Virus genome (UHGV): UHGV-1545242
Length of the DNA: 38,625 nt
From: a virus
Reading direction: 5' to 3' (one strand)
Shown piece after piece: positions 193-36,070 of the stretch. The stretch's first letter is position 1. Every line of letters begins with the position of its first letter. Below the pieces are notes generated by a model. The model had not been told where the DNA came from and made no database searches. It was given only the letters and a program-made list of their open reading frames with translations. Both the position numbers and the translations under genes were made by a program.

Positions 193-1449
193 GTGCTTAC
201 CGATACAAAATTAAAAAACCTCAAGCCGCAGGACAAACTGTACAAGGTCTCCGATCGTGACGGGCTGTATGTAGCTGTGCTTACGTCAGGCACGGTCTCG
301 TTTCGCTATGACTACCGTATCAACGGTCGCCGCGAAACACTGGTAATCGGGCAGTATGGGCGTGACGGTATCAGCCTGGCAGAAGCGCGAGAAGAACTGA
401 TTGCTGCAAAGAAGCTGCTTAAAGCAGGCCAGTCACCGGCTGCGGCTAAACGTGACGGTATCAAAAAGATTCGTGGTGCCGAGACGTTTGCGGTACATAC
501 CGACAGTTATATGAAACACGTCATCCTGGCTGACAGTACCCGCGCAATGAAGCAGGCGGTGATCGACCGTGACATACTTCCTGTTCTTGGTAACAAAATG
601 ATGGCTGAAATTACCACATCGATGGTTCGTGATTTGTGTGACCGGATTGTCGAACGCGGTGGTCGGGCAACAGCAGTACAGGCCAGGGAGATCATCAGCA
701 GCGTATACCGTCACGCCAATGACCGTGGTCATGGTTTGTTTAATCCTGCGGCTGACATTAAACCTTCGTCTATCGCCATATTTAAACCACGAGAGCGAAC
801 ACTGACACCAGAAGAAATTGGCCTGTTCTTCCGCACGCTGGATGCCATTGGTGCTATGGGCACTATGAAAATGGCTTTAAAACTGGTGCTTATCACTATG
901 GTTCGTAAGGGCGAATTCACCAATGCAACGTGGGATGAAATAGATTTTAAAAAATGGACATGGACAATTCCTTCAGACCGCATGAAGGGAAGCCGGGCGC
1001 ATGTTATTTACCTGCCTAAACAGGCTCAGGATATATTGGTCGGGTTGCAGATGTGCGCTGGTGGAAGTGAATATCTGGTTCCTGGTCGTTACAATTTCCG
1101 GAAGCCATTATCTAATGCCGCGCTGAACTCTCTGATCGACAGAACGGTGAAAATAATAAATGAAGATGGTGAGCATATTCAGGGCTTCACCGTACACGAT
1201 ATGCGCCGTACAGCCAGTACGTTGTTGCATGAGGCTGGTTATCCTTCAGACTGGATTGAAAAGGCTCTGGCACATGAGCAGAAAGGTGTGCGCGCCGTAT
1301 ATAACAAAGCGGAATACGCCAGACAGCGCGCCTACATGTTGCAGCAGTGGGCCGATATGATTGATTCCTGGATTAACGGGGAGCATACAGATCTGATTCC
1401 GTTCTCCCCGTCGAAGTTTGAGAGGTGGATGGAAGACAGTAATAAATAA
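193..1449 (+). CDS. int: Tyrosine recombinase, P4-type phage integrase
   Basis: 418-aa ORF; N-terminus LTDTKLKNLKPQDKLYKVSDRDGLYVAV typical of P4-family integrases; C-terminal HxxR..Y region (HDMRRTASTLL...VYNKAEY); GTG start at 193. Confidence 0.9.
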   Translation: MLTDTKLKNLKPQDKLYKVSDRDGLYVAVLTSGTVSFRYDYRINGRRETLVIGQYGRDGISLAEAREELIAAKKLLKAGQSPAAAKRDGIKKIRGAETFAVHTDSYMKHVILADSTRAMKQAVIDRDILPVLGNKMMAEITTSMVRDLCDRIVERGGRATAVQAREIISSVYRHANDRGHGLFNPAADIKPSSIAIFKPRERTLTPEEIGLFFRTLDAIGAMGTMKMALKLVLITMVRKGEFTNATWDEIDFKKWTWTIPSDRMKGSRAHVIYLPKQAQDILVGLQMCAGGSEYLVPGRYNFRKPLSNAALNSLIDRTVKIINEDGEHIQGFTVHDMRRTASTLLHEAGYPSDWIEKALAHEQKGVRAVYNKAEYARQRAYMLQQWADMIDSWINGEHTDLIPFSPSKFERWMEDSNK

Positions 1450-5840: not shown

Positions 5841-5921
5841 AACTTGTTACCTCGGTCTGTTACTGTTGGGGTAATAATTATGCTTATTTGGTTTGGTGTC
5901 AATAGATATGAGTTAAAAAAA

Positions 5922-5936
5922 TTACCCGTAAGGTAA
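5922..5936. promoter_or_regulatory. Operator-like palindrome TTACC-N5-GGTAA (leftward early promoter region)
   Basis: ttacccgtaaggtaa between repressor terminator and first leftward gene. Confidence 0.6.
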
Positions 5937-5993: not shown

Positions 5994-6578
5994 TTATTGT
6001 TTGCTTTTTTCGTTCTGGTTGATGACAAATTCAATGTAACTTTCGATCTTTGCTTTCTCGGTTTCGGGTAACAATGCGTAGCGTGAGCGGTCATAGTTGA
6101 TAGTCGCAGGGTCGTGCGGGTGAATCAGTAGTTCATATCCGTGACGCCCGAATGCGGATGCAACATTCTCCAGGGTGGAAATGGAAACGCTGACCTCATT
6201 GTTTAACAGGCGGCTGATTGTCACCTGGGCGACGCCGGATGCGCGGTGAAGTTTTCCCTGCGTTGAAAGGTCGCGGCTTTCGCTCATCCAGCGTTCCAGG
6301 TTGTGAGCCGCCAGCTGACCAATGTCGCTTGGGCCGACAGGCTGAAAACCTTCCTGAGAAAGCGAGCGATCGATATCAAGCCAGTTACGGGGTTTATTGG
6401 CGGCAGCTTCAATTTTTCGCGCAACCTGGTCGCCGATAACCTTCTTGCCAAGAGCCCAGCGGTTTACCAGATTTGCCTGAGTTCCAAGTTTTTCTGCCAT
6501 CCGCGTCTGAACACCATTGAATTCACGGTCGATCAAGTCGTTGAGATTTTGCCTGCGGACGTCCTGGATACTTTTCAT
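5994..6578 (-). CDS. Prophage repressor (CI-like position), HTH DNA-binding protein without S24 peptidase domain
   Basis: Divergent from Cro-like gene; two HTH-like segments (MAEKLGTQANLVNRW; GVAQVTISRLLNNE); no Ala-Gly/Ser-Lys LexA-like autocleavage motifs seen. Confidence 0.7.
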   Translation of the reverse strand: MKSIQDVRRQNLNDLIDREFNGVQTRMAEKLGTQANLVNRWALGKKVIGDQVARKIEAAANKPRNWLDIDRSLSQEGFQPVGPSDIGQLAAHNLERWMSESRDLSTQGKLHRASGVAQVTISRLLNNEVSVSISTLENVASAFGRHGYELLIHPHDPATINYDRSRYALLPETEKAKIESYIEFVINQNEKSKQ

Positions 6579-6633
6579 TTTCTGGAAAATCGCCTCATAT
6601 ATGAATCAGTAGATGATTCAATTTAAAGCAATA

Positions 6634-6648
6634 TTACCCAACAGGTAA
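6634..6648. promoter_or_regulatory. Operator-like palindrome TTACC-N5-GGTAA (repressor/cro intergenic)
   Basis: ttacccaacaggtaa. Confidence 0.6.
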
Positions 6649-7010: not shown

Positions 7011-7018
7011 ATCTATTC

Positions 7019-7033
7019 GTACCTCAAAGGTAA
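7019..7033. promoter_or_regulatory. Operator-like near-palindrome GTACC-N5-GGTAA after cro terminator
   Basis: gtacctcaaaggtaa, preceded by atctattcgt. Confidence 0.45.
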
Positions 7034-7113
7034 TAAATAACCAAATCTGGTTGATCTTTTTTTTGTGTCAGCACAAAATGACCGTAATCCCAATACTAAT
7101 AACAGGGCTTACC

Positions 7114-7329: not shown

Positions 7330-8163
7330 ATGAGCAGACATGCAACAGATTGGGCCTGGGAGACAGATCCAGGTAGCTCATCATTAAAGCTCATACTGCT
7401 CTCGATGGCTGACAGAGCCGATGAATATAACCTCTGCTACCCCAGCATAGAACGCCTCGTTAAAGACACTTGCCTGAATAAAAAAACCGTGCAGGCCGGG
7501 CTTATATCGCTCATGAAAATGGGGCTTATTTCAGATACCGGAGAGAGAAAGGGAGCGACAAAAAGAGTGCGGGTTTTCTCTCTTAATATAACCAAAAACG
7601 GGAACATTAAAGGCAACCGGGAGGGGGGCAATGAACCCGAAAACGGTAATGTTACCGAAAACGGGAATATACCCAAAAACGGGATGTTGAATGATCCCAA
7701 AAACGGGATGTTGAATGATCCCAAAAACGGGATCCAGAACCAGTCATATAACCAGTCATTTAACCAAGAGAGGGAGAGCAGGACAAAAACCGGGGATTCT
7801 GTGCCTCATGACCCCGGCGCAAACAACGCCGTGATGAATAACTTTGTTCCTCCTGGTGGGCCAGGGCAATTAGGTAAATTTGTCATGCATGAACAATGGC
7901 AGCCATCAGATGACTTTCTTCGGAAAAGCTCATTGCAGGGAATCTACCTGGACAGTCTGCCAACGGCACAGGAACTTGCAGAGTTCAGAATTTACTGGAT
8001 GGCTGAGGGTAAGGCATACCATCAGGCACAGTGGGAGCAGAAGCTGGCAAGGCGCATCCAGTTCTGTAGACAGAAATCAGGTGAAGTCAGAAAGAGCCTT
8101 GACTGGCATAACACTGACTGGATAGATGAGGTGTGGGATGAAATCAACTCCAGAACTTCTTAA
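7330..8163 (+). CDS. Replication initiator (lambda O-like / replisome organiser) with internal origin iterons
   Basis: N-terminal HTH region (WETDPGSSSLKLILLSMADRADEYNLCYPSIERL), followed by iteron-encoded repeats and a C-terminal domain preceding the P-like gene. Confidence 0.75.
   Translation: MSRHATDWAWETDPGSSSLKLILLSMADRADEYNLCYPSIERLVKDTCLNKKTVQAGLISLMKMGLISDTGERKGATKRVRVFSLNITKNGNIKGNREGGNEPENGNVTENGNIPKNGMLNDPKNGMLNDPKNGIQNQSYNQSFNQERESRTKTGDSVPHDPGANNAVMNNFVPPGGPGQLGKFVMHEQWQPSDDFLRKSSLQGIYLDSLPTAQELAEFRIYWMAEGKAYHQAQWEQKLARRIQFCRQKSGEVRKSLDWHNTDWIDEVWDEINSRTS
7592..7732. repeat. Iteron array, candidate replication origin inside the initiator gene
   Basis: Six copies of CC(C/G)AAAACGGGA at 7592, 7636, 7655, 7672, 7696, 7720 including a perfect 24-bp tandem CCCAAAAACGGGATGTTGAATGAT; followed by AT-richer direct repeat cagtcatataacc/cagtcatttaacc. 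Confidence 0.65.
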
Positions 8164-8920: not shown

Positions 8921-8957
8921 TACCAGCGCGATAGCGCATTTTTTTACGTCTCGATGA

Positions 8958-8972
8958 TTACCTGCTGGGTAA
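8958..8972. promoter_or_regulatory. Operator-like palindrome TTACC-N5-GGTAA downstream of P-like gene
   Basis: ttacctgctgggtaa. Confidence 0.55.
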
Positions 8973-9019
8973 TAAAATATTCTAAAATCTATTGATTTAG
9001 TGTCTTATGTGGTTTTTAA

Positions 9020-9034
9020 TTACCTCAGGGGTAA
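9020..9034. promoter_or_regulatory. Operator-like palindrome TTACC-N5-GGTAA overlapping RBS of frameshifted gene
   Basis: ttacctcaggggtaa, 62 bp from previous site, AT-rich promoter-like DNA between. Confidence 0.55.
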
Positions 9035-12380: not shown

Positions 12381-12610
12381 CATGTTACGAAGGTGTTATG
12401 CCAAAAATACGCTACGACCTTGAAGATATGAGAGATAACTCAGCAAATTTTCCGAAAGAGGTTAAATTTCTCATGCATAAGTATGGTTGCGCCAGGAGGG
12501 ATATAGTTATCGACAGTCAGCACCCTTGCGGCGAGGATGTAATTTTCATTCGCGGTAAATGGGAAGGGTATCTTGACGAGAGTTTTTACGATGAATTTGA
12601 TGGACTTTGA
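12377..12610 (+). CDS. Hypothetical protein
   Basis: 77-aa ORF, overlapping stop/start with neighbours. Confidence 0.45.
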   Translation: MTCYEGVMPKIRYDLEDMRDNSANFPKEVKFLMHKYGCARRDIVIDSQHPCGEDVIFIRGKWEGYLDESFYDEFDGL

Positions 12611-13281
12611 ATACTGCCGCCAACTATGGTGGCTTTATTTTGCATGGTACTATTACCACAACGGTAACTATTACCACGGTGGTTATGATGCCTGCTGAAC
12701 CTAAAACCTATAAACGCAAATCAACGCAATTTAAGCCACTAACAGCAATGCAGGAGGCTTATTGCCAGTCATACATCAAAACGCCTGAAAACCAGACTCA
12801 GGCAGCGATTAACGCAGGATTCTCCCCAAATACAGCGGCAGTTAAAGCCAGTGTCATGATGCGCGACGAACGCATTCAAAAACGGATTGCCGAGTTGATG
12901 GAGGAGCGCAACAAACGAATGCGCGTCAGTGCTGATTACGTTCTCATGCGCCTGGTGGAGATCGACCAGATGGACGTGATTGATATCCTCAACGACGATG
13001 GGAGCCTTAAGCCAATCCGCGAGTGGCCGAAAATCTGGCGCACTACGCTTAGCGGCTTTGATCTGTCATCGACCATCATGAACATGAACGAGGATTCGAT
13101 AGAGACAATCCTCAAAAAAATTAAATGGCCTGACAAGGTGAAGAACCTCGAACTGATTGGTAAGCACGTCGACGTCAACGCATTCAAAGAACGCCTGGAT
13201 GTTAATGTGAATGTGACAATTGCTGATCGCATAGCAGCAGCCAGGAAGCGACTCAAAGAACGTCAGGATGGTAATCAGTGA
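12607..13281 (+). CDS. Terminase small subunit
   Basis: Segment AMQEAYCQSYIKTPENQTQAAINAGFSPNTAAVKASVMMRDERIQKRIAEL matches the Terminase_2 small-subunit pattern; start may be internal (MMPAEP at ~12685). Confidence 0.75.
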   Translation: MNTAANYGGFILHGTITTTVTITTVVMMPAEPKTYKRKSTQFKPLTAMQEAYCQSYIKTPENQTQAAINAGFSPNTAAVKASVMMRDERIQKRIAELMEERNKRMRVSADYVLMRLVEIDQMDVIDILNDDGSLKPIREWPKIWRTTLSGFDLSSTIMNMNEDSIETILKKIKWPDKVKNLELIGKHVDVNAFKERLDVNVNVTIADRIAAARKRLKERQDGNQ

Positions 13282-14753
13282 CAGATGCAGCGTTATCTCC
13301 TGAAGAGCAGTTAATCGAAGATATTGCAGGGTTCACTCACGATCCGCTTGGCTATGCCCTCTATGCGTTCCCTTGGGGGGAAGAGGGGACTGAACTGGCA
13401 CATGCTACCGGTCCACGTCAGTGGCAGGCCGATGCGTTCCGAGAGATACGTGATCACCTGCAGAATCCAGAGACGCGTTATCAGCCGCTTATGCTGGGAC
13501 GTGCTTCTGGTCACGGTATTGGTAAATCCGCATTCATCTCAATGCTCATCAACTGGGGCATGTCCACTTGCGAGGATTGTAAGGTCGTGGTGACCGCCAA
13601 CACCGACAACCAGCTACGAACGAAGACCTGGCCGGAAATTATCAAGTGGTCGAACCTTGCTATCACGAAAGACTGGTTTACCTGTACCGCTACCGCGATG
13701 TACAGCAATGACCCTGGGCACGACAAGCGGTGGCGGGCTGACGCAATACCCTGGTCTGAGCACAACACTGAGGCATTCGCCGGACTACACAACGAGCGCA
13801 AACGCATCATCGTGGTATTCGATGAAGCGTCGAACATTGCGGATCTGGTGTGGGAAGTTGCTGAGGGTGCGCTTACGGACGAAGACACCGAAATCATCTG
13901 GGTGGCGTTCGGGAACCCGACGCGTAATACCGGGCGTTTCCGCGAATGTTTCCGCAAATATAAACACCGCTGGAAAACTGCGCAGATTGACAGCCGGACG
14001 GTGGAAGGCACTAACAAACAGCAGTTGCAGAAATGGGTTGATGATTACGGGGAAGACAGCGACTTCGTTAAAATCCGTGTGCGTGGCATATTCCCTGATG
14101 CATCTGAATTGCAGTTTATCCCTACCGGTCTTACTGACGAGGCAATGAAACGGGTGGTAACCGCTGCGCAGGTGGCACATGCTCCGGTGATAATCGGCGT
14201 TGACCCGGCATACTCCGGCGTTGATGACGCGGTGATATACCTGCGGCAGGGGCTACACAGTAAGGTGCTGTGGACTGGCAACAAGACTACCGACGATCTG
14301 ATTATGGCGAAGCGTATCGCTGACTTTGAAGACCAGTATCAGGCTGACGCGGTGTTCATCGACTTCGGTTACGGAACCGGTTTGAAGTCAATCGGTGACG
14401 GCTGGGGTCGTACATGGCAACTTGTTCCGTTCGGTGGCGCGTCTACTGACCCGCAGATGCTCAACAAGCGTGGGGAGATGTTCAATTCATGCAAGACATG
14501 GCTGAGGCTGGGCGGCATGCTGGATGACCAGGAAACAGCAGACGACCTGTCGGCGGCAGAGTACAAAGTTCGAGTGGACGGTAAAATCGTTATCGAACCG
14601 AAGGAAGATATCAAGGAGCGGCTTGGGCGTTCACCGGGTAAAGGCGATGCGCTACTGCTGACGTTTGCGTTCCCTGTGTCTAAGCGTCTGCGAATTCCCG
14701 GTCAGCAGAACCAGCAAGGCAAGGCCATCACAGATTACGATCCCTATGCTTAA
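13278..14753 (+). CDS. Terminase large subunit
   Basis: Walker A-like GRASGHGIGKS, Walker B-like IIVVFDEAS, C-terminal nuclease region; GTG start overlapping small-subunit stop. Confidence 0.9.
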   Translation: MTDAALSPEEQLIEDIAGFTHDPLGYALYAFPWGEEGTELAHATGPRQWQADAFREIRDHLQNPETRYQPLMLGRASGHGIGKSAFISMLINWGMSTCEDCKVVVTANTDNQLRTKTWPEIIKWSNLAITKDWFTCTATAMYSNDPGHDKRWRADAIPWSEHNTEAFAGLHNERKRIIVVFDEASNIADLVWEVAEGALTDEDTEIIWVAFGNPTRNTGRFRECFRKYKHRWKTAQIDSRTVEGTNKQQLQKWVDDYGEDSDFVKIRVRGIFPDASELQFIPTGLTDEAMKRVVTAAQVAHAPVIIGVDPAYSGVDDAVIYLRQGLHSKVLWTGNKTTDDLIMAKRIADFEDQYQADAVFIDFGYGTGLKSIGDGWGRTWQLVPFGGASTDPQMLNKRGEMFNSCKTWLRLGGMLDDQETADDLSAAEYKVRVDGKIVIEPKEDIKERLGRSPGKGDALLLTFAFPVSKRLRIPGQQNQQGKAITDYDPYA

Positions 14754-14803
14754 TCCGCTGGTGGGGATAATGTCGTTGATATCCTCTGGTGAGGATAAAA
14801 CAA

Positions 14804-14830
14804 AGCCAGCTCATAGGCTGGCTGTTTGTG
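14804..14830 (+). terminator. Rho-independent terminator after terminase genes
   Basis: AGCCAGC-tcata-GCTGGCT followed by GTTTGTG. Confidence 0.55.
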
Positions 14831-14843
14831 ACATGTCACGGTG

Positions 14844-15176
14844 TTATTTCGGTAGATTGTGTTTGGCATTCGACTCGTCTATCACGTAACGCATTGCAGT
14901 TCGACCGAGATTACCAGGATCTTCATGCAGACTCACTCGTGCCTTTAGGAGCACACATTCAGCCTTGACATAGTTTGCTGGAATTATTCCTACCTCGGCA
15001 TTTTTAAATGCCTCCTTCACCGCCTCACCGTTGTACTGACCGCCAAGCAACTCTGTACATGTCAGGTTGTTATGGATAATTGCAAGGAGATCTTTAATCT
15101 CTTCACGCAGGTTTACAATCGCCATCGCGGCATTGATAGCTGCGGCATAGCGCTCAGCTGCAGTCTTCTCTTTCAT
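14844..15176 (-). CDS. Hypothetical protein, inverted moron between terminase and portal
   Basis: Minus-strand ORF inside an otherwise plus-strand late region; ATG at 15176 preceded by AAGGTGA. Confidence 0.55.
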   Translation of the reverse strand: MKEKTAAERYAAAINAAMAIVNLREEIKDLLAIIHNNLTCTELLGGQYNGEAVKEAFKNAEVGIIPANYVKAECVLLKARVSLHEDPGNLGRTAMRYVIDESNAKHNLPK

Positions 15177-15187
15177 GATTTTCACCT

Positions 15188-15213
15188 TAAAAAAATGCCC
15201 GGCGAACCGGGCG
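15188..15213 (-). terminator. Hairpin plus T-run on minus strand, downstream of tRNA and immediately upstream of the moron RBS
   Basis: GCCCGG-ttcg-CCGGGC followed by TTTTTTT (minus-strand reading). Confidence 0.5.
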
Positions 15214-15375
15214 AACTGGAAGCAATGAGTTATGCCTTCCGTGGCTGTACTGGTTTACAGCATGAAGCCATCGCAATGGCGCCCTGCTGTAAAAAGGGCG
15301 GTGATAGTCCTTCAAGGGAAACCATCACTGCCAAGCCCCTGGAACTTCTGGCATCACGGTCCTTAGGCGTGATTC

Positions 15376-15452
15376 TGGCGTGGCATGCAGGATTCGAACC
15401 TGCGACCAACCGCTTAGAAGGCGGTTGCTCTGTCCAACTGAGCTAATGCCAC
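15376..15452 (-). tRNA. tRNA-Arg (anticodon UCU)
   Basis: Manual fold of minus-strand sequence: 7-bp acceptor stem GTGGCAT/ATGCCAC, D arm GCTC/GAGC, anticodon stem ACCGC/GCGGT with loop CTTCTAA, T arm GCAGG-TTCGAAT-CCTGC, encoded CCA. Confidence 0.85.
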
Positions 15453-15774
15453 AACGCTGAGAGCACTTAGCCTGTTAAGGCGCCACACTTTGTCGCGGCT
15501 CCATAAATGCTCTCATCGTTGTACCCTCGTCTCTTCCGAGGCGTCACACCGAATCGCCGGGATGGTGAATCCCCGTGCGCGGAATAAAACCGCTCGACTT
15601 GCACATTCCGGCTACCTGGTTCGTTTGCCACAGCCAGGGAGGGTGCCCCTTAAACGCATCCAGACCGCTATCGGCGCATGTGCCATACGCCGTACTGCTC
15701 AAAATAAAAGCTCACTCCACCTGTTCAATTTAACGACAAGCCAGTCAGGTTAGTAACCGGAATGAACTCTTTGG

Positions 15775-15789
15775 TTACCTGAAAGGTAA
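15775..15789. promoter_or_regulatory. Operator-like palindrome TTACC-N5-GGTAA upstream of portal/late operon
   Basis: ttacctgaaaggtaa, identical to site at 32822. Confidence 0.55.
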
Positions 15790-15879
15790 TAATTCGCGCG
15801 TTAAATGTCAACTGTCTACGATAAATAAATCATATGTGGTTAAATTGGTAATAATTTAATTGCGTACGGAGTCATTGAT

Positions 15880-16086
15880 ATGTGCATGGGTAGCTCACCA
15901 TCAGTGCCTGCAACACCAGAAGTTCAGGCAGCACCACAGGAGCAGGATGCCGCCGTTGTTGATGCCCGCGACGAAGAAACTCGTCGCCGTCGCGCTGCTG
16001 CTGGTCGTAGTTCTACGCTGCTTACCGGTTCTCAGGGCGACACATCAACTGCTAATACCAGCGGTAAAACGCTGCTTGGTCAGTAA
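15880..16086 (+). CDS. Possible small low-complexity protein upstream of portal
   Basis: 68-aa ORF with GGAG upstream; Ala/Thr/Gln-rich; could be non-coding. Confidence 0.3.
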   Translation: MCMGSSPSVPATPEVQAAPQEQDAAVVDARDEETRRRRAAAGRSSTLLTGSQGDTSTANTSGKTLLGQ

Positions 16087-16100
16087 CCGGAGTCATTGAA

Positions 16101-17780
16101 ATGGCGGAAACAACTAAAGAGCGATTGAACAAACAGTTCGCACAACTTGAAAGCGAGCGTCAGTCGTTCGAGCCGCACTGGCGCGAGTTGAGTGATTACA
16201 TCAACCCGCGTGGTTCCCGCTTTCTGACTTCTGAGGTCAACCGTAACGATCGACGCAATACACGCATTATTGATTCGACCGGGACTATGGCAGCGCGCAC
16301 TCTCGCCAGCGGCATGATGTCAGGCATCACAAGCCCCGCGCGTCCGTGGTTTCGCCTGGCTACGCCAGATCCTGAAATGATGGATTATGGCCCTGTTAAG
16401 TTGTGGCTTGAGGCGGTGCAGAACCGCATGAACGATATGTTCAATAAGTCGAATCTCTACCAGTCTCTTCCGCAGTTATACGGAAGCCTCGGCACATACA
16501 GCACTGGTGCAATGGCGGTGCTGGAGGATGACGAGGACATCATTCGCACAATGCCATTCCCGATAGGCAGTTACTACCTGGCTAACTCACCTCGTGGCAG
16601 TGTGGACACCTGTTTTCGCAAGTTCTCTATGACTGTTCGTCAGCTTGTTCAGGAGTTCGGGCTAAATAACGTCAGCGAATCCGTAAAAAGCATGTGGGAA
16701 AGCGGCACCTACGAGAAGTGGATTGAAGTGATGCATTCGGTTTACCCGAACATTGACCGCGATACATCGAAGCTGGATAGCAAGAACAAGCCATTCAAAT
16801 CGGTTTATTACGAGGTTGGCGGTGATAACGACAAGTTGTTGCGTGAGTCCGGATTCGATGAGTTTCCAATTATGGCTCCGCGCTGGGAAGTTAACGGCGA
16901 AGATGTTTATGGATCATCATGCCCGGGTATGCTGGCGCTTGGACCTGTTAAGGCATTGCAGCTTCTCCAGAAGCGCAAGTCGCAGTTGATTGATAAAGCC
17001 ACCAATCCGCCGATGGTTGCTCCGACTTCCCTCAAGAATCAGCGCGCCTCCCTTCTTCCTGGCGACATCACGTATATCGATCAGATTACTGGTCAGGATG
17101 GTTTCAGGCCTGCTTATCTGGTTAACCCCAGTACAGCAGATCTGGTAGCAGACATTCAGGACACTCGTCAAATCATTAACAGCGCCTACTTTGTCGATCT
17201 GTTCATGATGTTGCAGAACATCAATACCCGCTCGATGCCTGTTGAAGCGGTGATCGAAATGAAAGAAGAAAAACTTCTGATGTTGGGTCCGGTTCTGGAG
17301 CGTCTGAACGACGAATGTCTTAATCCTCTCATTGACCGCGCTTTCTCGATGATGGTGCGTAAAAACATGCTGCCGCCACCGCCAGACGTGATGGAAGGTA
17401 TGCCCCTGAAGGTCGAATACATTTCCGTCATGGCTCAGGCGCAGAAGTCTATCGGCCTGTCCAGTCTGGCGTCCACGGTTAACTTCATTGGTCAACTTGC
17501 GCAAGCGAAACCAGAAGCTCTCGACAAACTCAACGTTGATCAGGCGATCGATGCATTCGCTGATATGTCCGGAGTGTCTCCAACCGTCATTGTTCCGCAG
17601 GAACAGGTTGAGCAGGCTCGCCAGCAACGGGCACAGCAACAACAGCAGCAACAAATGATGGCGATGGGGATGGCGGCGGCACAGGGTGCCAAGACGCTAA
17701 GCGAAGCTAAAACTTCGGATCCGAGTGTTTTGTCAGCTATGGCGAATGCAGTTAGTGGTCAGGGTGGGCAATCACAATGA
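16101..17780 (+). CDS. Portal protein, T7-like head-to-tail connector family
   Basis: 559 aa; position after terminase; poly-Gln C-terminal tail; overall resemblance to podovirus connector proteins. Confidence 0.85.
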   Translation: MAETTKERLNKQFAQLESERQSFEPHWRELSDYINPRGSRFLTSEVNRNDRRNTRIIDSTGTMAARTLASGMMSGITSPARPWFRLATPDPEMMDYGPVKLWLEAVQNRMNDMFNKSNLYQSLPQLYGSLGTYSTGAMAVLEDDEDIIRTMPFPIGSYYLANSPRGSVDTCFRKFSMTVRQLVQEFGLNNVSESVKSMWESGTYEKWIEVMHSVYPNIDRDTSKLDSKNKPFKSVYYEVGGDNDKLLRESGFDEFPIMAPRWEVNGEDVYGSSCPGMLALGPVKALQLLQKRKSQLIDKATNPPMVAPTSLKNQRASLLPGDITYIDQITGQDGFRPAYLVNPSTADLVADIQDTRQIINSAYFVDLFMMLQNINTRSMPVEAVIEMKEEKLLMLGPVLERLNDECLNPLIDRAFSMMVRKNMLPPPPDVMEGMPLKVEYISVMAQAQKSIGLSSLASTVNFIGQLAQAKPEALDKLNVDQAIDAFADMSGVSPTVIVPQEQVEQARQQRAQQQQQQQMMAMGMAAAQGAKTLSEAKTSDPSVLSAMANAVSGQGGQSQ

Positions 17781-32821: not shown

Positions 32822-32836
32822 GTTTTGCAAATTACC
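32822..32836. promoter_or_regulatory. Operator-like palindrome TTACC-N5-GGTAA in divergent region upstream of tailspike
   Basis: ttacctgaaaggtaa; followed by atctattcgta, also seen at 7011-7021. Confidence 0.55.
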
Positions 32837-32950
32837 TGAAAGGTAATATCTATTCGTATTTACAGTCTTTCTATCCATATGTGGTTTTCCAGGTAATAGA
32901 ATAACCAGATATGCGGCGCAACGGGTGCTGCGACTATCTGGAGATTTAAC

Positions 32951-35900
32951 ATGACGGTCTCAACCGAAGTTGACCACAACGAATACACCGGTAACGGCGT
33001 TACGACATCGTTTCCGTATACTTTTCGAATTTTCAGAAAATCAGACCTGGTTGTTCAGGTGTCTGACCTGAACGGAAACGTAACAGAATTGGTTCTGGAT
33101 ACCGGTTATACGGTAACTGGGGCGGGCACTTATAGTGGCGGTTCTGTGGTTCTTCCGTCTCCGCTTGCTACTGGATGGCGAATTACGATAGATCGTGTGC
33201 TTGATGTAGTGCAGGAGACAGACCTTCGCAATCAGGGAAAATTTTTCCCCGAAGTGCATGAAGATGCCTTTGACTACCTGACGATGCTGATCCAGCAATG
33301 TTTTGGGTGGTTCAGACGTGCATTGATGAAACCATCTTTGCTTGCAAAATATTACGATGCAAAGCAAAACAAAATTTCTAACCTTGCAGATCCATCATTT
33401 GAGCAGGACGCTGTAAATAATCGCTCAATGCGTAATTATGTCGATGCTGCAATCGCCGGGGTTGTTGGTGGTTTTGGTTGGTTTATTCAGTATGGTTCTG
33501 GGGCTGTGTACCGAACGTTCCAGGATAAAATGCGTGATGCTATTAGCCCCAAAGATTTTGGAGCTGTTGGTGATGGTATAAATGACGATTCCACTGCAAT
33601 AAGCGCGTGCCTTGAAGCCTCATCTCCAGGTTATAAAATTGACGGATTAGGGCTTACTTTTAAAGTATCAACTCTTCCGGATGTCAGTCGATTTAAAAAT
33701 GCTCGTTTTTTATTTGAGAGAATACCGGGCCAGCCTCTTTTTTATGCTTCTGAAGATTTTATCCAGGGAGAGTTATTTAAAATTACAGATACACCGTGGT
33801 ACAACGCCTGGACGCAGGATAAAACGTTTGTATATGACAATGTCATCTATGCGCCTTTTATGGCTGGAGACCGCCATGGTGTAAATAACCTCCATGTTGC
33901 ATGGGTTCGCTCAGGAGATGACGGGAAGACCTGGACAACGCCGGAATGGCTTACAGATTTACATGAAAACTATCCCACAGTTAACTATCACTGCATGAGT
34001 ATGGGGGTTGTCAGAAATCGCCTTTTTGCTGTAATTGAGACGCGGACCGTGAGAGGAAATAAACTGCAGGTTGCAGAGTTGTGGGATCGCCCAATGAGTC
34101 GCAGCCTTCGCGTTTATGGTGGTATAACGAAAGCAGCAAATCAGCAAGTCGCTTATATTCGCATTACTGATCACGGATTATTTGCTGGTGATTTTGTCAA
34201 CTTCTCAAACTCTGGTGTTACAGGTGTTACCGGGAATATGACGGTGACTACTGTTATTGATAAAAATACCTTTACAGTTACGACGCAAAATACCCAGGAT
34301 GTGGATCAGAATAACGAGGGTAGATACTGGAGTTTTGGCACATCATTTCACTCGTCACCATGGAGAAAAACCAGTCTTGGAACTATTCCTTCTTTTGTTG
34401 ACGGAAGCACTCCTGTTACTGAGATTCACAGTTTTGCGACGATTAGCGATAACAGTTTTGCTGTTGGCTACCATAATGGTGATATTGGTCCACGCGAGCT
34501 TGGGATACTCTATTTCTCTGATGCTTTCGGTTCTCCTGGTAGCTTTGTTCGCAGACGCATACCTGTAGAATATGAGGCGAATGCATCTGAGCCATGTGTA
34601 AAATATTATGATGGCATTCTGTATCTGACGACCAGGGGGACATTAAGTACTCAACCCGGTAGTTCATTGCACAGAAGCTCTGATTTAGGTACATCATGGA
34701 ATTCTCTTCGCTTCCCAAATAATGTTCATCACTCAAACCTTCCTTTTGCCAAAGTTGGCGATGAGCTGATTATTTTTGGCAGTGAGCGCGCATTTGGTGA
34801 GTGGGAAGGAGGAGAACCTGATAACCGTTATGCAGGAAATTATCCAAGAACATTTATGACCAGAGTTAACGTCAATGAGTGGAGTCTGGATAATGTAGAG
34901 TGGGTTAATGTTACTGATCAGATTTATCAGGGCGGAATAGTTAACTCTGCGGTTGGTGTTGGTTCAGTTTGTATCAAAGACAACTGGCTGTACTACATTT
35001 TCGGTGGGGAAGACTTTCTAAACCCATGGAGCATAGGGGATAACAACAGAAAATATCCTTATGTTCACGATGGTCACCCGGCTGATTTGTATTGTTTCAG
35101 GGTGAAAATTAAACAGGAAGAATTTGTTTCAAGGGATTTTGTCTACGGAGCCACTCCTAACAGAACGCTTCCTACTTTTATGTCGACGTCAGGCGTGAGG
35201 ACGGTTCCTGTACCCGTTGATTTCACAGATGATGTTGCCGTCCAGTCACTGACTGTCCATGCAGGTACATCAGGACAAGTTCGCGCGGAAGTCAAACTTG
35301 AGGGTAATTACGCCATTATTGCGAAGAAAGTACCGTCTGATGATGTTACCGCTCAGAGATTAATCGTTAGCGGCGGTGAAACAACGTCTTCAGCAGATGG
35401 TGCAATGATAACGTTGCATGGTTCCGGAAGCAGTACTCCACGTCGCGCGGTATATAACGCACTCGAACATCTTTTTGAGAACGGAGATGTTAAACCTTAT
35501 CTTGATAATGTAAATGCTCTTGGTGGTCCGGGAAACAGGTTCTCGACAGTTTATCTTGGCTCCAATCCTGTGGTTACCAGTGACGGAACATTAAAGACAG
35601 AGCCGGTCTCTCCTGACGAAGCATTGCTGGATGCCTGGGGTGACGTCAGGTATATCGCTTATAAATGGCTGAACGCTGTCGCTATAAAGGGGGAAGAAGG
35701 GGCGAGGATACATCATGGTGTAATCGCGCAGCAACTTCGTGATGTTCTTATTTCTCACGGACTCATGGAAGAAGAAAGCACAACATGCCGCTATGCCTTT
35801 CTTTGCTATGACGATTATCCCGCAGTATATGATGACGTCATTACTGGCCAAAGGGAAATGCCGCTGACTGATAATGACGGGAGCATCATTGTTGATGAGG

Positions 35901-36070
35901 ATGATAATCCAGTGATGGTAATAGAAGACATCATTGAGCGCGTTGAAATAACGCCAGCAGGATCTAGATGGGGGGTCAGACCTGATCTCTTATTCTATAT
36001 CGAGGCAGCATGGCAGCGCAGAGAAATGGATAAGATAAAAGAGCGGGTTCAGTCTCTGGAAGAACGTTAA
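32951..36070 (+). CDS. Tailspike/depolymerase with C-terminal intramolecular chaperone (S74-type) domain
   Basis: 1039 aa; conserved N-terminal virion-attachment region; central DFGAVGDGINDDSTAI beta-helix start motif; C-terminal TSDGTLK...YIAYKW...RIHHGVIAQQL pattern. Confidence 0.85.
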   Translation: MTVSTEVDHNEYTGNGVTTSFPYTFRIFRKSDLVVQVSDLNGNVTELVLDTGYTVTGAGTYSGGSVVLPSPLATGWRITIDRVLDVVQETDLRNQGKFFPEVHEDAFDYLTMLIQQCFGWFRRALMKPSLLAKYYDAKQNKISNLADPSFEQDAVNNRSMRNYVDAAIAGVVGGFGWFIQYGSGAVYRTFQDKMRDAISPKDFGAVGDGINDDSTAISACLEASSPGYKIDGLGLTFKVSTLPDVSRFKNARFLFERIPGQPLFYASEDFIQGELFKITDTPWYNAWTQDKTFVYDNVIYAPFMAGDRHGVNNLHVAWVRSGDDGKTWTTPEWLTDLHENYPTVNYHCMSMGVVRNRLFAVIETRTVRGNKLQVAELWDRPMSRSLRVYGGITKAANQQVAYIRITDHGLFAGDFVNFSNSGVTGVTGNMTVTTVIDKNTFTVTTQNTQDVDQNNEGRYWSFGTSFHSSPWRKTSLGTIPSFVDGSTPVTEIHSFATISDNSFAVGYHNGDIGPRELGILYFSDAFGSPGSFVRRRIPVEYEANASEPCVKYYDGILYLTTRGTLSTQPGSSLHRSSDLGTSWNSLRFPNNVHHSNLPFAKVGDELIIFGSERAFGEWEGGEPDNRYAGNYPRTFMTRVNVNEWSLDNVEWVNVTDQIYQGGIVNSAVGVGSVCIKDNWLYYIFGGEDFLNPWSIGDNNRKYPYVHDGHPADLYCFRVKIKQEEFVSRDFVYGATPNRTLPTFMSTSGVRTVPVPVDFTDDVAVQSLTVHAGTSGQVRAEVKLEGNYAIIAKKVPSDDVTAQRLIVSGGETTSSADGAMITLHGSGSSTPRRAVYNALEHLFENGDVKPYLDNVNALGGPGNRFSTVYLGSNPVVTSDGTLKTEPVSPDEALLDAWGDVRYIAYKWLNAVAIKGEEGARIHHGVIAQQLRDVLISHGLMEEESTTCRYAFLCYDDYPAVYDDVITGQREMPLTDNDGSIIVDEDDNPVMVIEDIIERVEITPAGSRWGVRPDLLFYIEAAWQRREMDKIKERVQSLEER

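Follow-up and report, generated by a model that had tools for sequence, protein, structure and literature searches.

A conserved pseudoknotted leader RNA in a candidate noncoding RNA unit between the terminase and portal genes of an epsilon15/phiV10-like prophage

The terminase–portal gap and the core RNA

The stretch of DNA analysed here is the virus genome UHGV-1545242 (38,625 nucleotides, nt), which we call the window. As a megablast query it gives 96-98% matches to phiV10, TL-2011b and the O157 typing phages, and on these matches it is an epsilon15/phiV10-like (Uetakevirus) Escherichia coli prophage. The gap separating its terminase genes from the portal module contains a group of minus-strand features (Table 1), and these are the subject of this work. 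An earlier note on this DNA had read them as an inverted moron comprising a tRNA-Arg, a short protein gene and about 300 bp of GC-rich DNA, and the layout of the open reading frames (ORFs), with the tRNA and the protein gene both on the minus strand, bears out that a minus-strand unit breaks up the terminase–portal region. The GC-rich part, 15453-15760, holds our main result. The note had seen no convincing ORF there and had thought of a structured RNA as one possible content. Both statements hold: no credible ORF is present, and the stretch contains a covarying, pseudoknotted RNA of ~180 nt, which we refer to as the core.

A first alignment of homologues shows invariant blocks with variable hairpins between them. 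We evaluated the structure on a MAFFT alignment (A1) of the window copy, 15517-15695 on the minus strand, with 31 diverse homologues (32 sequences), using RNAalifold and a count of pairs. The structure has five helices and two pseudoknots, which together make 30 pairs or 959 alignment cells. Standard pairs fill 98.7% of these cells compared with 90.4% in column shuffles, and none of the 500 shuffles reaches the observed value; when the partners are slid by 1-3 columns, pairing falls to 27-46%. Compensatory changes on both sides occur in 10 of the 30 pairs, three of them in P4 and three in P5. For example, pair 8:20 in P1 is GC in 18 sequences and AU in 13, pair 34:92 in P2 is CG in 21 and UA in 11, and pair 152:172, which joins the P4 loop CACC to the downstream GGUG in a pseudoknot, is CG in 29 and AU in 3. 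The second pseudoknot, between GCACAU in the P1 loop and AUGUGC, is invariant, so covariation neither supports nor contradicts it. G-U pairs are frequent (6:22, 32:94 and 146:160, for example) and would be A-C mismatches if read on the opposite strand. Since they fit the minus strand only, the RNA is on that strand, co-oriented with the tRNA. A plus-strand ORF of 87 amino acids (aa) at 15490-15753 and other ORFs across the region were considered as an alternative and rejected, because the homologues carry insertions and deletions in the variable stems and compensatory changes in the helices.

Rfam 15 contains no family that matches the core or the adjoining P6 stem at E-values up to 10 (15453-15760 of the window), and scans of nine further loci at permissive E-values leave the core unmatched. 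A covariance model of the core (R1, 163 positions) finds a single hit in the window, at 149 bits. A BLAST search with 15453-15800 matches 86 phage records, almost none of which is annotated at that place. The core occurs in Uetakevirus-like phages (phiV10, Tyrion, PAT1, SPN1S and Klebsiella phages), in lambdoid phages (cdtI, mEp460, mEp390, Stx2c and Stx2a), in P1, P7 and other P1-like phages, and in one phage labelled Stenotrophomonas. The exact 19-mer GGTAGCCGGAATGTGCAAG is present in at least 120 IMG/VR viral contigs and in 24 contigs of species-representative genomes. Nearly all of the latter are from Enterobacterales, the genera including Escherichia, Klebsiella, Citrobacter, Kosakonia, Enterobacter, Phytobacter, Kluyvera, Buttiauxella and Erwinia, and R1 gives hits of 110-160 bits in 23 of the 24. 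Similar DNA is found in 1840 of 5426 complete RefSeq E. coli genomes, at 1918 chromosomal and 554 plasmid places, and among the matches listed in E. coli genomes 11 of 12 have no annotation underneath. The core belongs to a large, unannotated RNA family that extends across Uetakevirus-like, lambdoid/Stx and P1/P7 phages. R1 finds only a degenerate core in epsilon15 (39 bits) and none in the HK022 or ST64B genomes. Searches of the literature by exact motif and by topic gave no description of the core or of the unit, although the core may overlap with the put-like RNAs of King et al. (2011).

Two further observations concern individual contigs. The 19-mer is also found in two contigs of metagenome-assembled genomes labelled Oscillospiraceae and Bacillota (L142 and L154), of which L154 has a full core of 158 bits and L142 has no model hit; both are probably mis-binned enterobacterial phage DNA. 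In L065, an IMG/VR contig, a type I hammerhead match (384-430, plus strand) lies near the element and scores below threshold (28.7 bits, gathering score 34).

Table 1. Positions of the features in and around the terminase–portal gap, in window coordinates
Feature	Position	Strand	Basis and details
Operator-like motif, all sites	5860-5936, 6630-6648, 7015-7037, 8954-9034, 12649-12689, 15775-15793, 32832-32850		Motif scan
Small and large terminase	12607-14753		ORF list; large-subunit gene 13278-14753
Hairpin between convergent terminase gene and ORF	14804-14823		Scan on minus strand; phiV10 equivalent annotated
Ribosome-binding site (RBS) and 110-aa ORF	14844-15188	-	ORF list; RBS AAGGTG 15183-15188, ATG 15176, stop 14844-14846
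Intrinsic terminator 2	15189-15213	-	Scan; GC hairpin 15197-15212 and seven T; T-run abuts RBS
Second sRNA-like module	15189-15290	-	5' stem 15257-15290, CAUUGCUUCCAGUU 15214-15227, terminator 2
Intrinsic terminator 1	15291-15332	-	Scan; hairpin 15301-15328 and T-run
First sRNA-like module	15291-15352	-	Single-stranded GCCAGAAGUUCCAGGGGCUU 15333-15352, then terminator 1
Conserved hairpin in tRNA trailer	15353-15373	-	AUCACG-CCUAAGGAC-CGUGAU
tRNA-Arg, anticodon UCU	15376-15452	-	ARAGORN; Rfam RF00005; CCA end encoded in gene
P6 stem, ~20 bp	15451-15522	-	Arms ACAACGAUGAGAGCAUUUAU / CUAAGUGCUCUCAGCGUUGU; base overlaps first two tRNA nucleotides
P6 hypervariable tip, 32 nt	15471-15502	-
Conserved pseudoknotted leader RNA (core), ~180 nt	15517-15695	-	MAFFT A1, RNAalifold, pair-count test
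Core P5	15525-15541	-	Loop GAAGAGA
Core P4	15559-15573	-	Loop CACC pairs with GGUG 15547-15550
Core P3, variable hairpin	15579-15593	-
Core P2		-	Encloses variable hairpin
Invariant 19-mer GGUAGCCGGAAUGUGCAAG	15598-15616	-	Holds AUGUGC pairing with P1 loop GCACAU
Core P1 helix	15672-15692	-	RNAalifold/A1
Alternative, weaker promoter-like site	15701-15728	-	TTGAAC, 16 nt, TATTTT; without operator-like overlap
Weak terminator-like site	15741-15760	-	Scan
Operator-like site ATTATTACCtttcaGGTAA	15775-15793		Perfect copy; overlaps -10/+1 region of predicted promoter
Predicted sigma-70 promoter	15775-15811	-	Sequence reading; TTGACA 15806-15811, 17-nt spacer, TACCTT 15783-15788
GGTAATAATT repeat	15785-15794 and 15847-15856
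68-aa gene	15880-16086		ORF list
559-aa portal or head-tail connector	16101-17780		Scaffold and capsid genes after it

Modules downstream of the core

The core is followed on its 3' side by a long stem, P6, whose arms were compared with RNAduplex in all of the loci collected for this work (163 loci, carrying the prefix L, which with the window make 164 sequences). The arms covary widely among variants, as in CAACGAUGAGAGCA/UGCUCUCAGCGUUG, CAACGGGUAGCUCAC/GUGAGCUACUCGUUG and CAACAGAUAAGAGUA/UGCUCUUAUCGUUG, the tips range from 6 to ~170 nt, and minimum-free-energy folds also form P6. The tip in the window is ~91% like those of mEp460 and the Stx2c lambdoid phages, and the Uetakevirus-like locus L038, near-identical to the window, has an unrelated tip. 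The idea that the tip is a spacer or guide was followed by a BLAST search of the P6 region against 50,697 phage records, in which only other copies of the element matched.

After P6, a slot opens at the conserved junction GUUGUGG. In the window and in L016, L029, L033, L038, L084 and L104 the junction is followed by the same CAUUAGCUCAG, and the slot holds the tRNA-Arg(UCU), which the earlier note had called canonical. ARAGORN and Rfam scans confirm this: the match to RF00005 covers the full model (1-71) at 73.3 bits against a gathering score of 29, and ARAGORN finds this one tRNA in the whole window. In most other loci the slot contains a long hairpin (P7) closed by GUUGUGGUG/CACCACAAC. A tRNA-like domain had been considered for these relatives and was dropped, as the structure is rather this hairpin together with GCUGAU/AUCAGC, which covaries in L088. 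Among the hairpin-slot relatives ARAGORN calls a tRNA in Phytobacter loci only, where two Phytobacter ursingii copies (L136 2210-2288 and L156 1186-1264) have an odd 79-nt 'tRNA-Ile(aat)' in the slot, a unit of ~740 nt and a second, P5-like copy of the GAAGAGA hairpin. Klebsiella oxytoca prophages that share the 110-aa gene have the core and no tRNA. By comparison of the loci, the tRNA is one interchangeable occupant of the slot, since the unit exists without it in Klebsiella, lambdoid and other phages, and it is dispensable for the unit as a whole because there are relatives that lack it.

The earlier note had explained the tRNA as a supply for rare codons. Counted over the greedily chosen ORFs of at least 60 aa in the window, AGA and AGG occur at 7.7 and 5.0 per 1000 codons and make up 12% and 8% of the Arg codons. 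In E. coli they occur at ~2 and ~1.2 per 1000 codons, so that the enrichment in the window is roughly three- to four-fold. The excess is mainly in accessory, tail and tailspike-like genes, such as the 1039-aa tailspike-like gene at 32951-36070 (17 AGA and 8 AGG) and the 276-codon ORF at 7330-8163 (8 AGA and 3 AGG). It is absent from the terminase, portal and capsid genes, and almost none of these codons falls in core structural genes of the window. The tRNA would supplement the decoding of the AGA/AGG codons of the phage, and its likeness to other rare-codon tRNAs of phages lies in the match between tRNA-Arg(UCU) and raised AGA/AGG use in part of the prophage. The supply rationale is plausible but modest.

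Downstream of the tRNA, the earlier note had placed a spacer of about 165 nt with one terminator. The stretch is instead filled by the trailer hairpin, by terminator 1 and by a second module that resembles a small RNA (sRNA). Dozens of loci have the AUCACG...CGUGAU hairpin, with variants of the loop, behind whichever of the two, tRNA or P7 hairpin, fills the slot. In the stretch equivalent to module 1, 28 of the 164 sequences, many of them lambdoid, have GCUGUGUGUAGUC, which is identical to the 3' region of RprA, and in L007 (1355-1474, minus strand) the whole Rfam RprA model (RF00034) is matched at 50.2 bits and E = 1.7e-5 with a gathering score of 70. Module 1 of the window lacks GCUGUGUGUAGUC and has a different single-stranded sequence there. 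Module 2 is conserved across genera, and its terminator stem covaries (GCCCGG/CCGGGC, GCCCAC/GUGGGC and GCCCGC/GCGGGC). In the window it gives a weak match to RyhB (RF00057) at 15189-15243 on the minus strand (18.1 bits, E = 2.6, gathering score 55), in which only the terminator and the stretch AUUGCUUCCAGU just upstream of it, a 13-mer identical to the RyhB consensus, align well. The likeness to the two host sRNAs consists of these stretches, AUUGCUUCCAGU in module 2 of the window and GCUGUGUGUAGUC in the 28 relatives; the difference is that the 5' parts are unrelated and that all of the scores are below threshold. The sequence of the RprA-like loci suggests phage-borne mimics of RprA that would be made from the early-left promoter.

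The unit ends with a protein gene of 110 aa (333 nt with the stop), not 111 aa as had been noted. The protein belongs to phrog_27507, a PHROG family of unknown function (E = 3.5e-75), has no match in Pfam or PADLOC, and is poorly modelled by AlphaFold (mean predicted local distance difference test score 50.4). A homology search finds 15 clusters of homologues at 61-98% identity, and an alignment of 13 homologue sequences has 37 invariant columns. Because the homologues are conserved and mostly keep the same length, the ORF is a real gene. A Klebsiella oxytoca prophage has it in synteny, between portal module and terminase. In BLAST comparisons most relatives have a 'Gp49 family' gene, DUF2829 or other genes in place of it, and after the U-run of terminator 2 a conserved AAGGUGA precedes an ATG with which, depending on the relative, a different gene begins. 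In sequence terms, the protein gene is a swappable cassette joined right after a conserved RBS.

A consensus scan of the minus strand finds four terminator-like sites, where 1.2 are expected. One of these is the hairpin at which terminase gene and ORF converge; the earlier note had described it as a terminator common to both, and its counterpart in the phiV10 record is annotated as rho-independent on the plus strand, so it is probably a bidirectional terminator. The note's hairpin and T-run abutting the RBS are likewise present, with the correction that two terminators, not one, separate the tRNA from the ORF. A terminator immediately ahead of the RBS agrees with the attenuated read-through proposed there: translation of the ORF would need read-through, and would take place only from transcripts that pass both terminators.

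Promoter region and genomic context

Upstream of the core, the predicted sigma-70 promoter overlaps a perfect copy of an operator-like site. With up to two mismatches allowed, the motif ATTATTACC-N5-GGTAA has 14 copies in the window, where 0.13 are expected, and the copies cluster round a repressor-like gene of the helix-turn-helix (Cro/C1) type at 5994-6578. The small terminase region also contains copies, as does the DNA upstream of the 1039-aa tailspike-like gene. In the record of epsilon15 the corresponding intergenic region carries annotated sites for the repressor and for IHF. Because of the motif at the promoter and this annotation, repressor control is a reasonable reading, and the unit is probably controlled by a repressor. 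The weaker promoter-like site would start an RNA at ~15693, the 5' edge of the core, and is not conserved in Tyrion or PAT1.

The core always points the same way as the early transcription that flanks it. It follows the repressor gene on the same strand in lambdoid loci, in the order repressor-gene terminator, predicted near-consensus sigma-70 promoter and core. This promoter reads TTGACA-17-ATAATG in cdtI, for example, and TTGACA-18-TACATT in both L040 and L120, and the core starts 0-110 nt downstream of it. Since the promoter precedes the core, the core would by position be the first product of an early-left (pL-type) transcript. The alternative that it occupies a rex-like lysogeny-gene position and is expressed with cI was dropped, because the promoter is found between the cI terminator and the core. 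The genes after the core in lambdoid loci are yfdP-like, YfdQ (DUF2303) and YfdR-like, and no N-like (Arg-rich) ORF is seen downstream of the core in the loci inspected.

The P1 and P7 cores are flanked by trnI and ban, in an operon that the C1 operator Op(ban) controls. On the ban side of the core these phages (L010 and L002) also have a possible upstream ORF of 24 codons, AUGACUCAUAUC...UGCUAA, whose stop overlaps the ban start (UAAUG), and a stem able to pair across the RBS and start region of ban.

In the Uetakevirus-like phages the terminase–portal locus is occupied by different ORFs in phiV10, epsilon15, Tyrion, PAT1 and E. coli prophages. In the same accessory region of the Enterobacter phage Tyrion (L005, 450-514, minus strand), Rfam finds an int-alpA RNA at 44 bits with a gathering score of 35.8. 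ST64B (L161; 27240-27990, minus strand) has an unannotated gap of 815 bp between cI (sb38) and sb37, which contains P6-like stems, a GUUGUGGUG...CACCACAAC hairpin, the RprA-like stretch and a terminator, and in which a different 5' domain of ~300 nt replaces the core.

Possible roles of the core RNA

The explanation that we consider best is that 14804-15811 on the minus strand is a single leftward transcription unit whose main product is noncoding RNA, and we give this reading as a whole about an even chance. Transcription would start at the operator-overlapped promoter once the repressor is lifted, so that the unit would parallel the lambdoid copies of the core, which neighbour the repressor gene behind a promoter-like site, and the P1 copy in the ban operon that C1 controls. 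A duplex of 20 bp is a typical substrate of RNase III. RNase III would cleave the precursor within P6 and RNase P, with trimming of the 3' end, would free the tRNA, giving a leader RNA, a tip RNA, tRNA-Arg and small RNAs ending in terminators, and these last fragments would act as sRNAs of the Hfq type. The core itself would act in cis on the elongation complex or on the nascent transcript, by put-like or rrn-like antitermination or as an anti-Rho element, and would carry polymerase through several hundred nt of untranslated structured RNA and the terminators.

Known systems offer partial parallels. The put RNAs act in cis to allow read-through of terminators without phage proteins, and need the zinc-binding domain of the beta-prime subunit. 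In HK022 they are ~70 nt with two stem-loops, putL lying behind PL and putR behind PR (PMC9378689), and put-like antitermination has been suggested for N-less phages with an early-left operon of the yfdP/yfdQ/yfdR type (PMC12315714). The core resembles put in being a structured RNA that, if the predicted promoters hold, follows closely on an early promoter under repressor control, in lambdoid phages without an obvious N gene, with terminators between the RNA element and the downstream genes, and many of its copies have the same yfdP/yfdQ/yfdR context as in PMC12315714. It differs in its length of ~160-185 nt, its five helices and two pseudoknots and its single copy, and R1 has no match in HK022. 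On this comparison the core falls outside the put family in its published description. GOLLD and ROOL are structured noncoding RNAs that often occur in prophages near tRNA genes and are possibly co-transcribed with them (PMC5737381). The prophage context and the adjacent tRNA are shared, the tRNA here being demonstrably embedded in the unit, whereas the absence of an Rfam match, the Enterobacterales hosts, the smaller core and the modular build with sRNA-like 3' ends set the unit apart.

A nut site of the lambda type comprises a single-stranded boxA (CGCUCUUA / UGCUCUUUAACA) and then a boxB hairpin, and acts with the N protein. Many P6 3' arms contain a boxA-like UGCUCUC/UGCUCUUU, which is base-paired in P6 and missing from some variants (L011 and L157). 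In two IMG/VR lambdoid contigs, L092 and L036, a hairpin and then a canonical boxA (UGCUCUUUAACAA in L092) lie just 3' of the core, which there sits between the early promoter and the nut-like site. The organisation of rRNA operons and sRNAs from tRNA spacers, such as the 3'ETS of leuZ, is also related by analogy only. The likeness lies in a transcript that is long and untranslated, with cargo enclosed by a long stem, a tRNA embedded in it and a trailer RNA that stops at a terminator; the difference from rrn is again that the boxA-like sequence is base-paired in P6 and absent in some variants.

A cis-acting aid to transcription, put-like or rrn-like, is the role we favour for the core, and only tentatively. 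It is favoured because the core is invariably at the head of a longer unit and in no case has a terminator of its own, because it lies behind apparent early promoters in three unrelated phage groups, because it is common in N-less lambdoid phages and because the downstream genes have no visible promoters. A bolder form of the proposal, which we hold to be somewhat more doubtful, is that the core would be a new class of leader RNA that reprograms RNA polymerase without a phage protein, put-like in function and unrelated in structure, and that it would drive early transcription through the noncoding RNA cassette and terminators of P1, Stx, N-less lambdoid and epsilon15-like phages. Several points weigh against these proposals and the unit they belong to. 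The core is present once per genome, when HK022 has both putL and putR. In epsilon15 the core is degenerate and sRNA module 2 and the ORF have been retained, and in ST64B another 5' domain stands ahead of P6, P7, the seed stretch and the terminator. Since a canonical boxA follows the core in L036 and L092, these copies probably use N/nut anyway. The RyhB-like and RprA-like matches are below the Rfam gathering scores, and the operator reading would rest on motif enrichment and the annotation of another record.

Almost as likely as the cis role is a role in trans, still a possibility short of probable, in which the leader RNA is excised, accumulates and acts early after derepression on a conserved host machine or factor, with RNA polymerase, the ribosome, an RNase or proteins of the Hfq/CsrA type as candidate partners; the downstream modules would then be co-transcribed cargo. 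The long invariant single-stranded and pseudoknot stretches, kept across genera and unrelated phage types, fit a conserved partner, P6 and the tRNA could give the processing sites that free the core, and what the core precedes is very different from phage to phage (noncoding RNA modules, boxA, ORFs, and ban with its small upstream ORF). Against this stands the observation that the core is always the 5' part of a longer unit and is never found with a terminator of its own.

The remaining explanations are all improbable, to different degrees. The build of the core, with conserved junctions and pseudoknots and variable peripheral stems, is like that of an aptamer, the sequence after P5 in P1 can pair across the RBS and start of ban, and in L073 an ORF starts ~35 nt after P5. 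A ligand-sensing riboswitch or similar sensor gating early transcription or translation is nevertheless unlikely, because no class of genes is consistently downstream, no expression platform overlapping the 3' part of the core recurs, and it is mostly noncoding RNA that follows. Slightly less likely still is a ribozyme, self-cleaving or with another catalytic activity, by which the precursor would be processed; the size, pseudoknots and invariant nucleotides of the core would be compatible and it adjoins RNAs that need processing, but over the core there is no Rfam ribozyme match and no conserved cleavage-site context, and known host RNases suffice to process the tRNA and the stem.

The earlier note's inverted moron stands in part: the unit has a promoter-like site and terminators of its own, it is an accessory insertion between terminase and portal, and its content varies among relatives as in phage morons. 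It is very improbable, however, that it is simply a moron of tRNA and protein gene with the GC-rich DNA serving as promoter or spacer. Genuine as the tRNA and the ORF are, the 'spacer' carries numerous compensatory changes and persists in phages lacking both this tRNA and this ORF, and most of the unit is conserved noncoding RNA common to unrelated phages. The promoter, moreover, is apparently under operator control, and the perfect operator-like site overlapping it argues for expression under repressor control, and against autonomous expression of a moron in the lysogen; the weaker promoter-like site at 15701-15728 is free of this overlap. Least probable of all is conservation at the level of DNA, as a recombination boundary, a binding site or a single-stranded DNA element. 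The element does lie at mosaic junctions, and its flanks recombine, but its pairs covary with pairing kept, many of them are G-U and would read as A-C mismatches from the complementary strand, and its orientation relative to flanking transcription is always the same.

In summary, a complex covarying RNA has stayed unannotated in the heavily studied P1, Stx-converting and epsilon15/phiV10-like phages and in about one-third of complete E. coli genomes, and both genome annotations and RNA family libraries miss it. The attached modules suggest, from their sequences, that tRNAs and mimics of host sRNAs (RyhB-like and RprA-like) would be shipped as one processed transcript. There is a real chance that the core of this putative phage early leader RNA and noncoding RNA unit is a functionally new RNA class. 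If the core acts in trans, it would be a new early effector RNA of phages. If it modifies transcription, it would be a second and far more widespread class of protein-independent antiterminator, and could explain early-left expression in N-less lambdoid phages.

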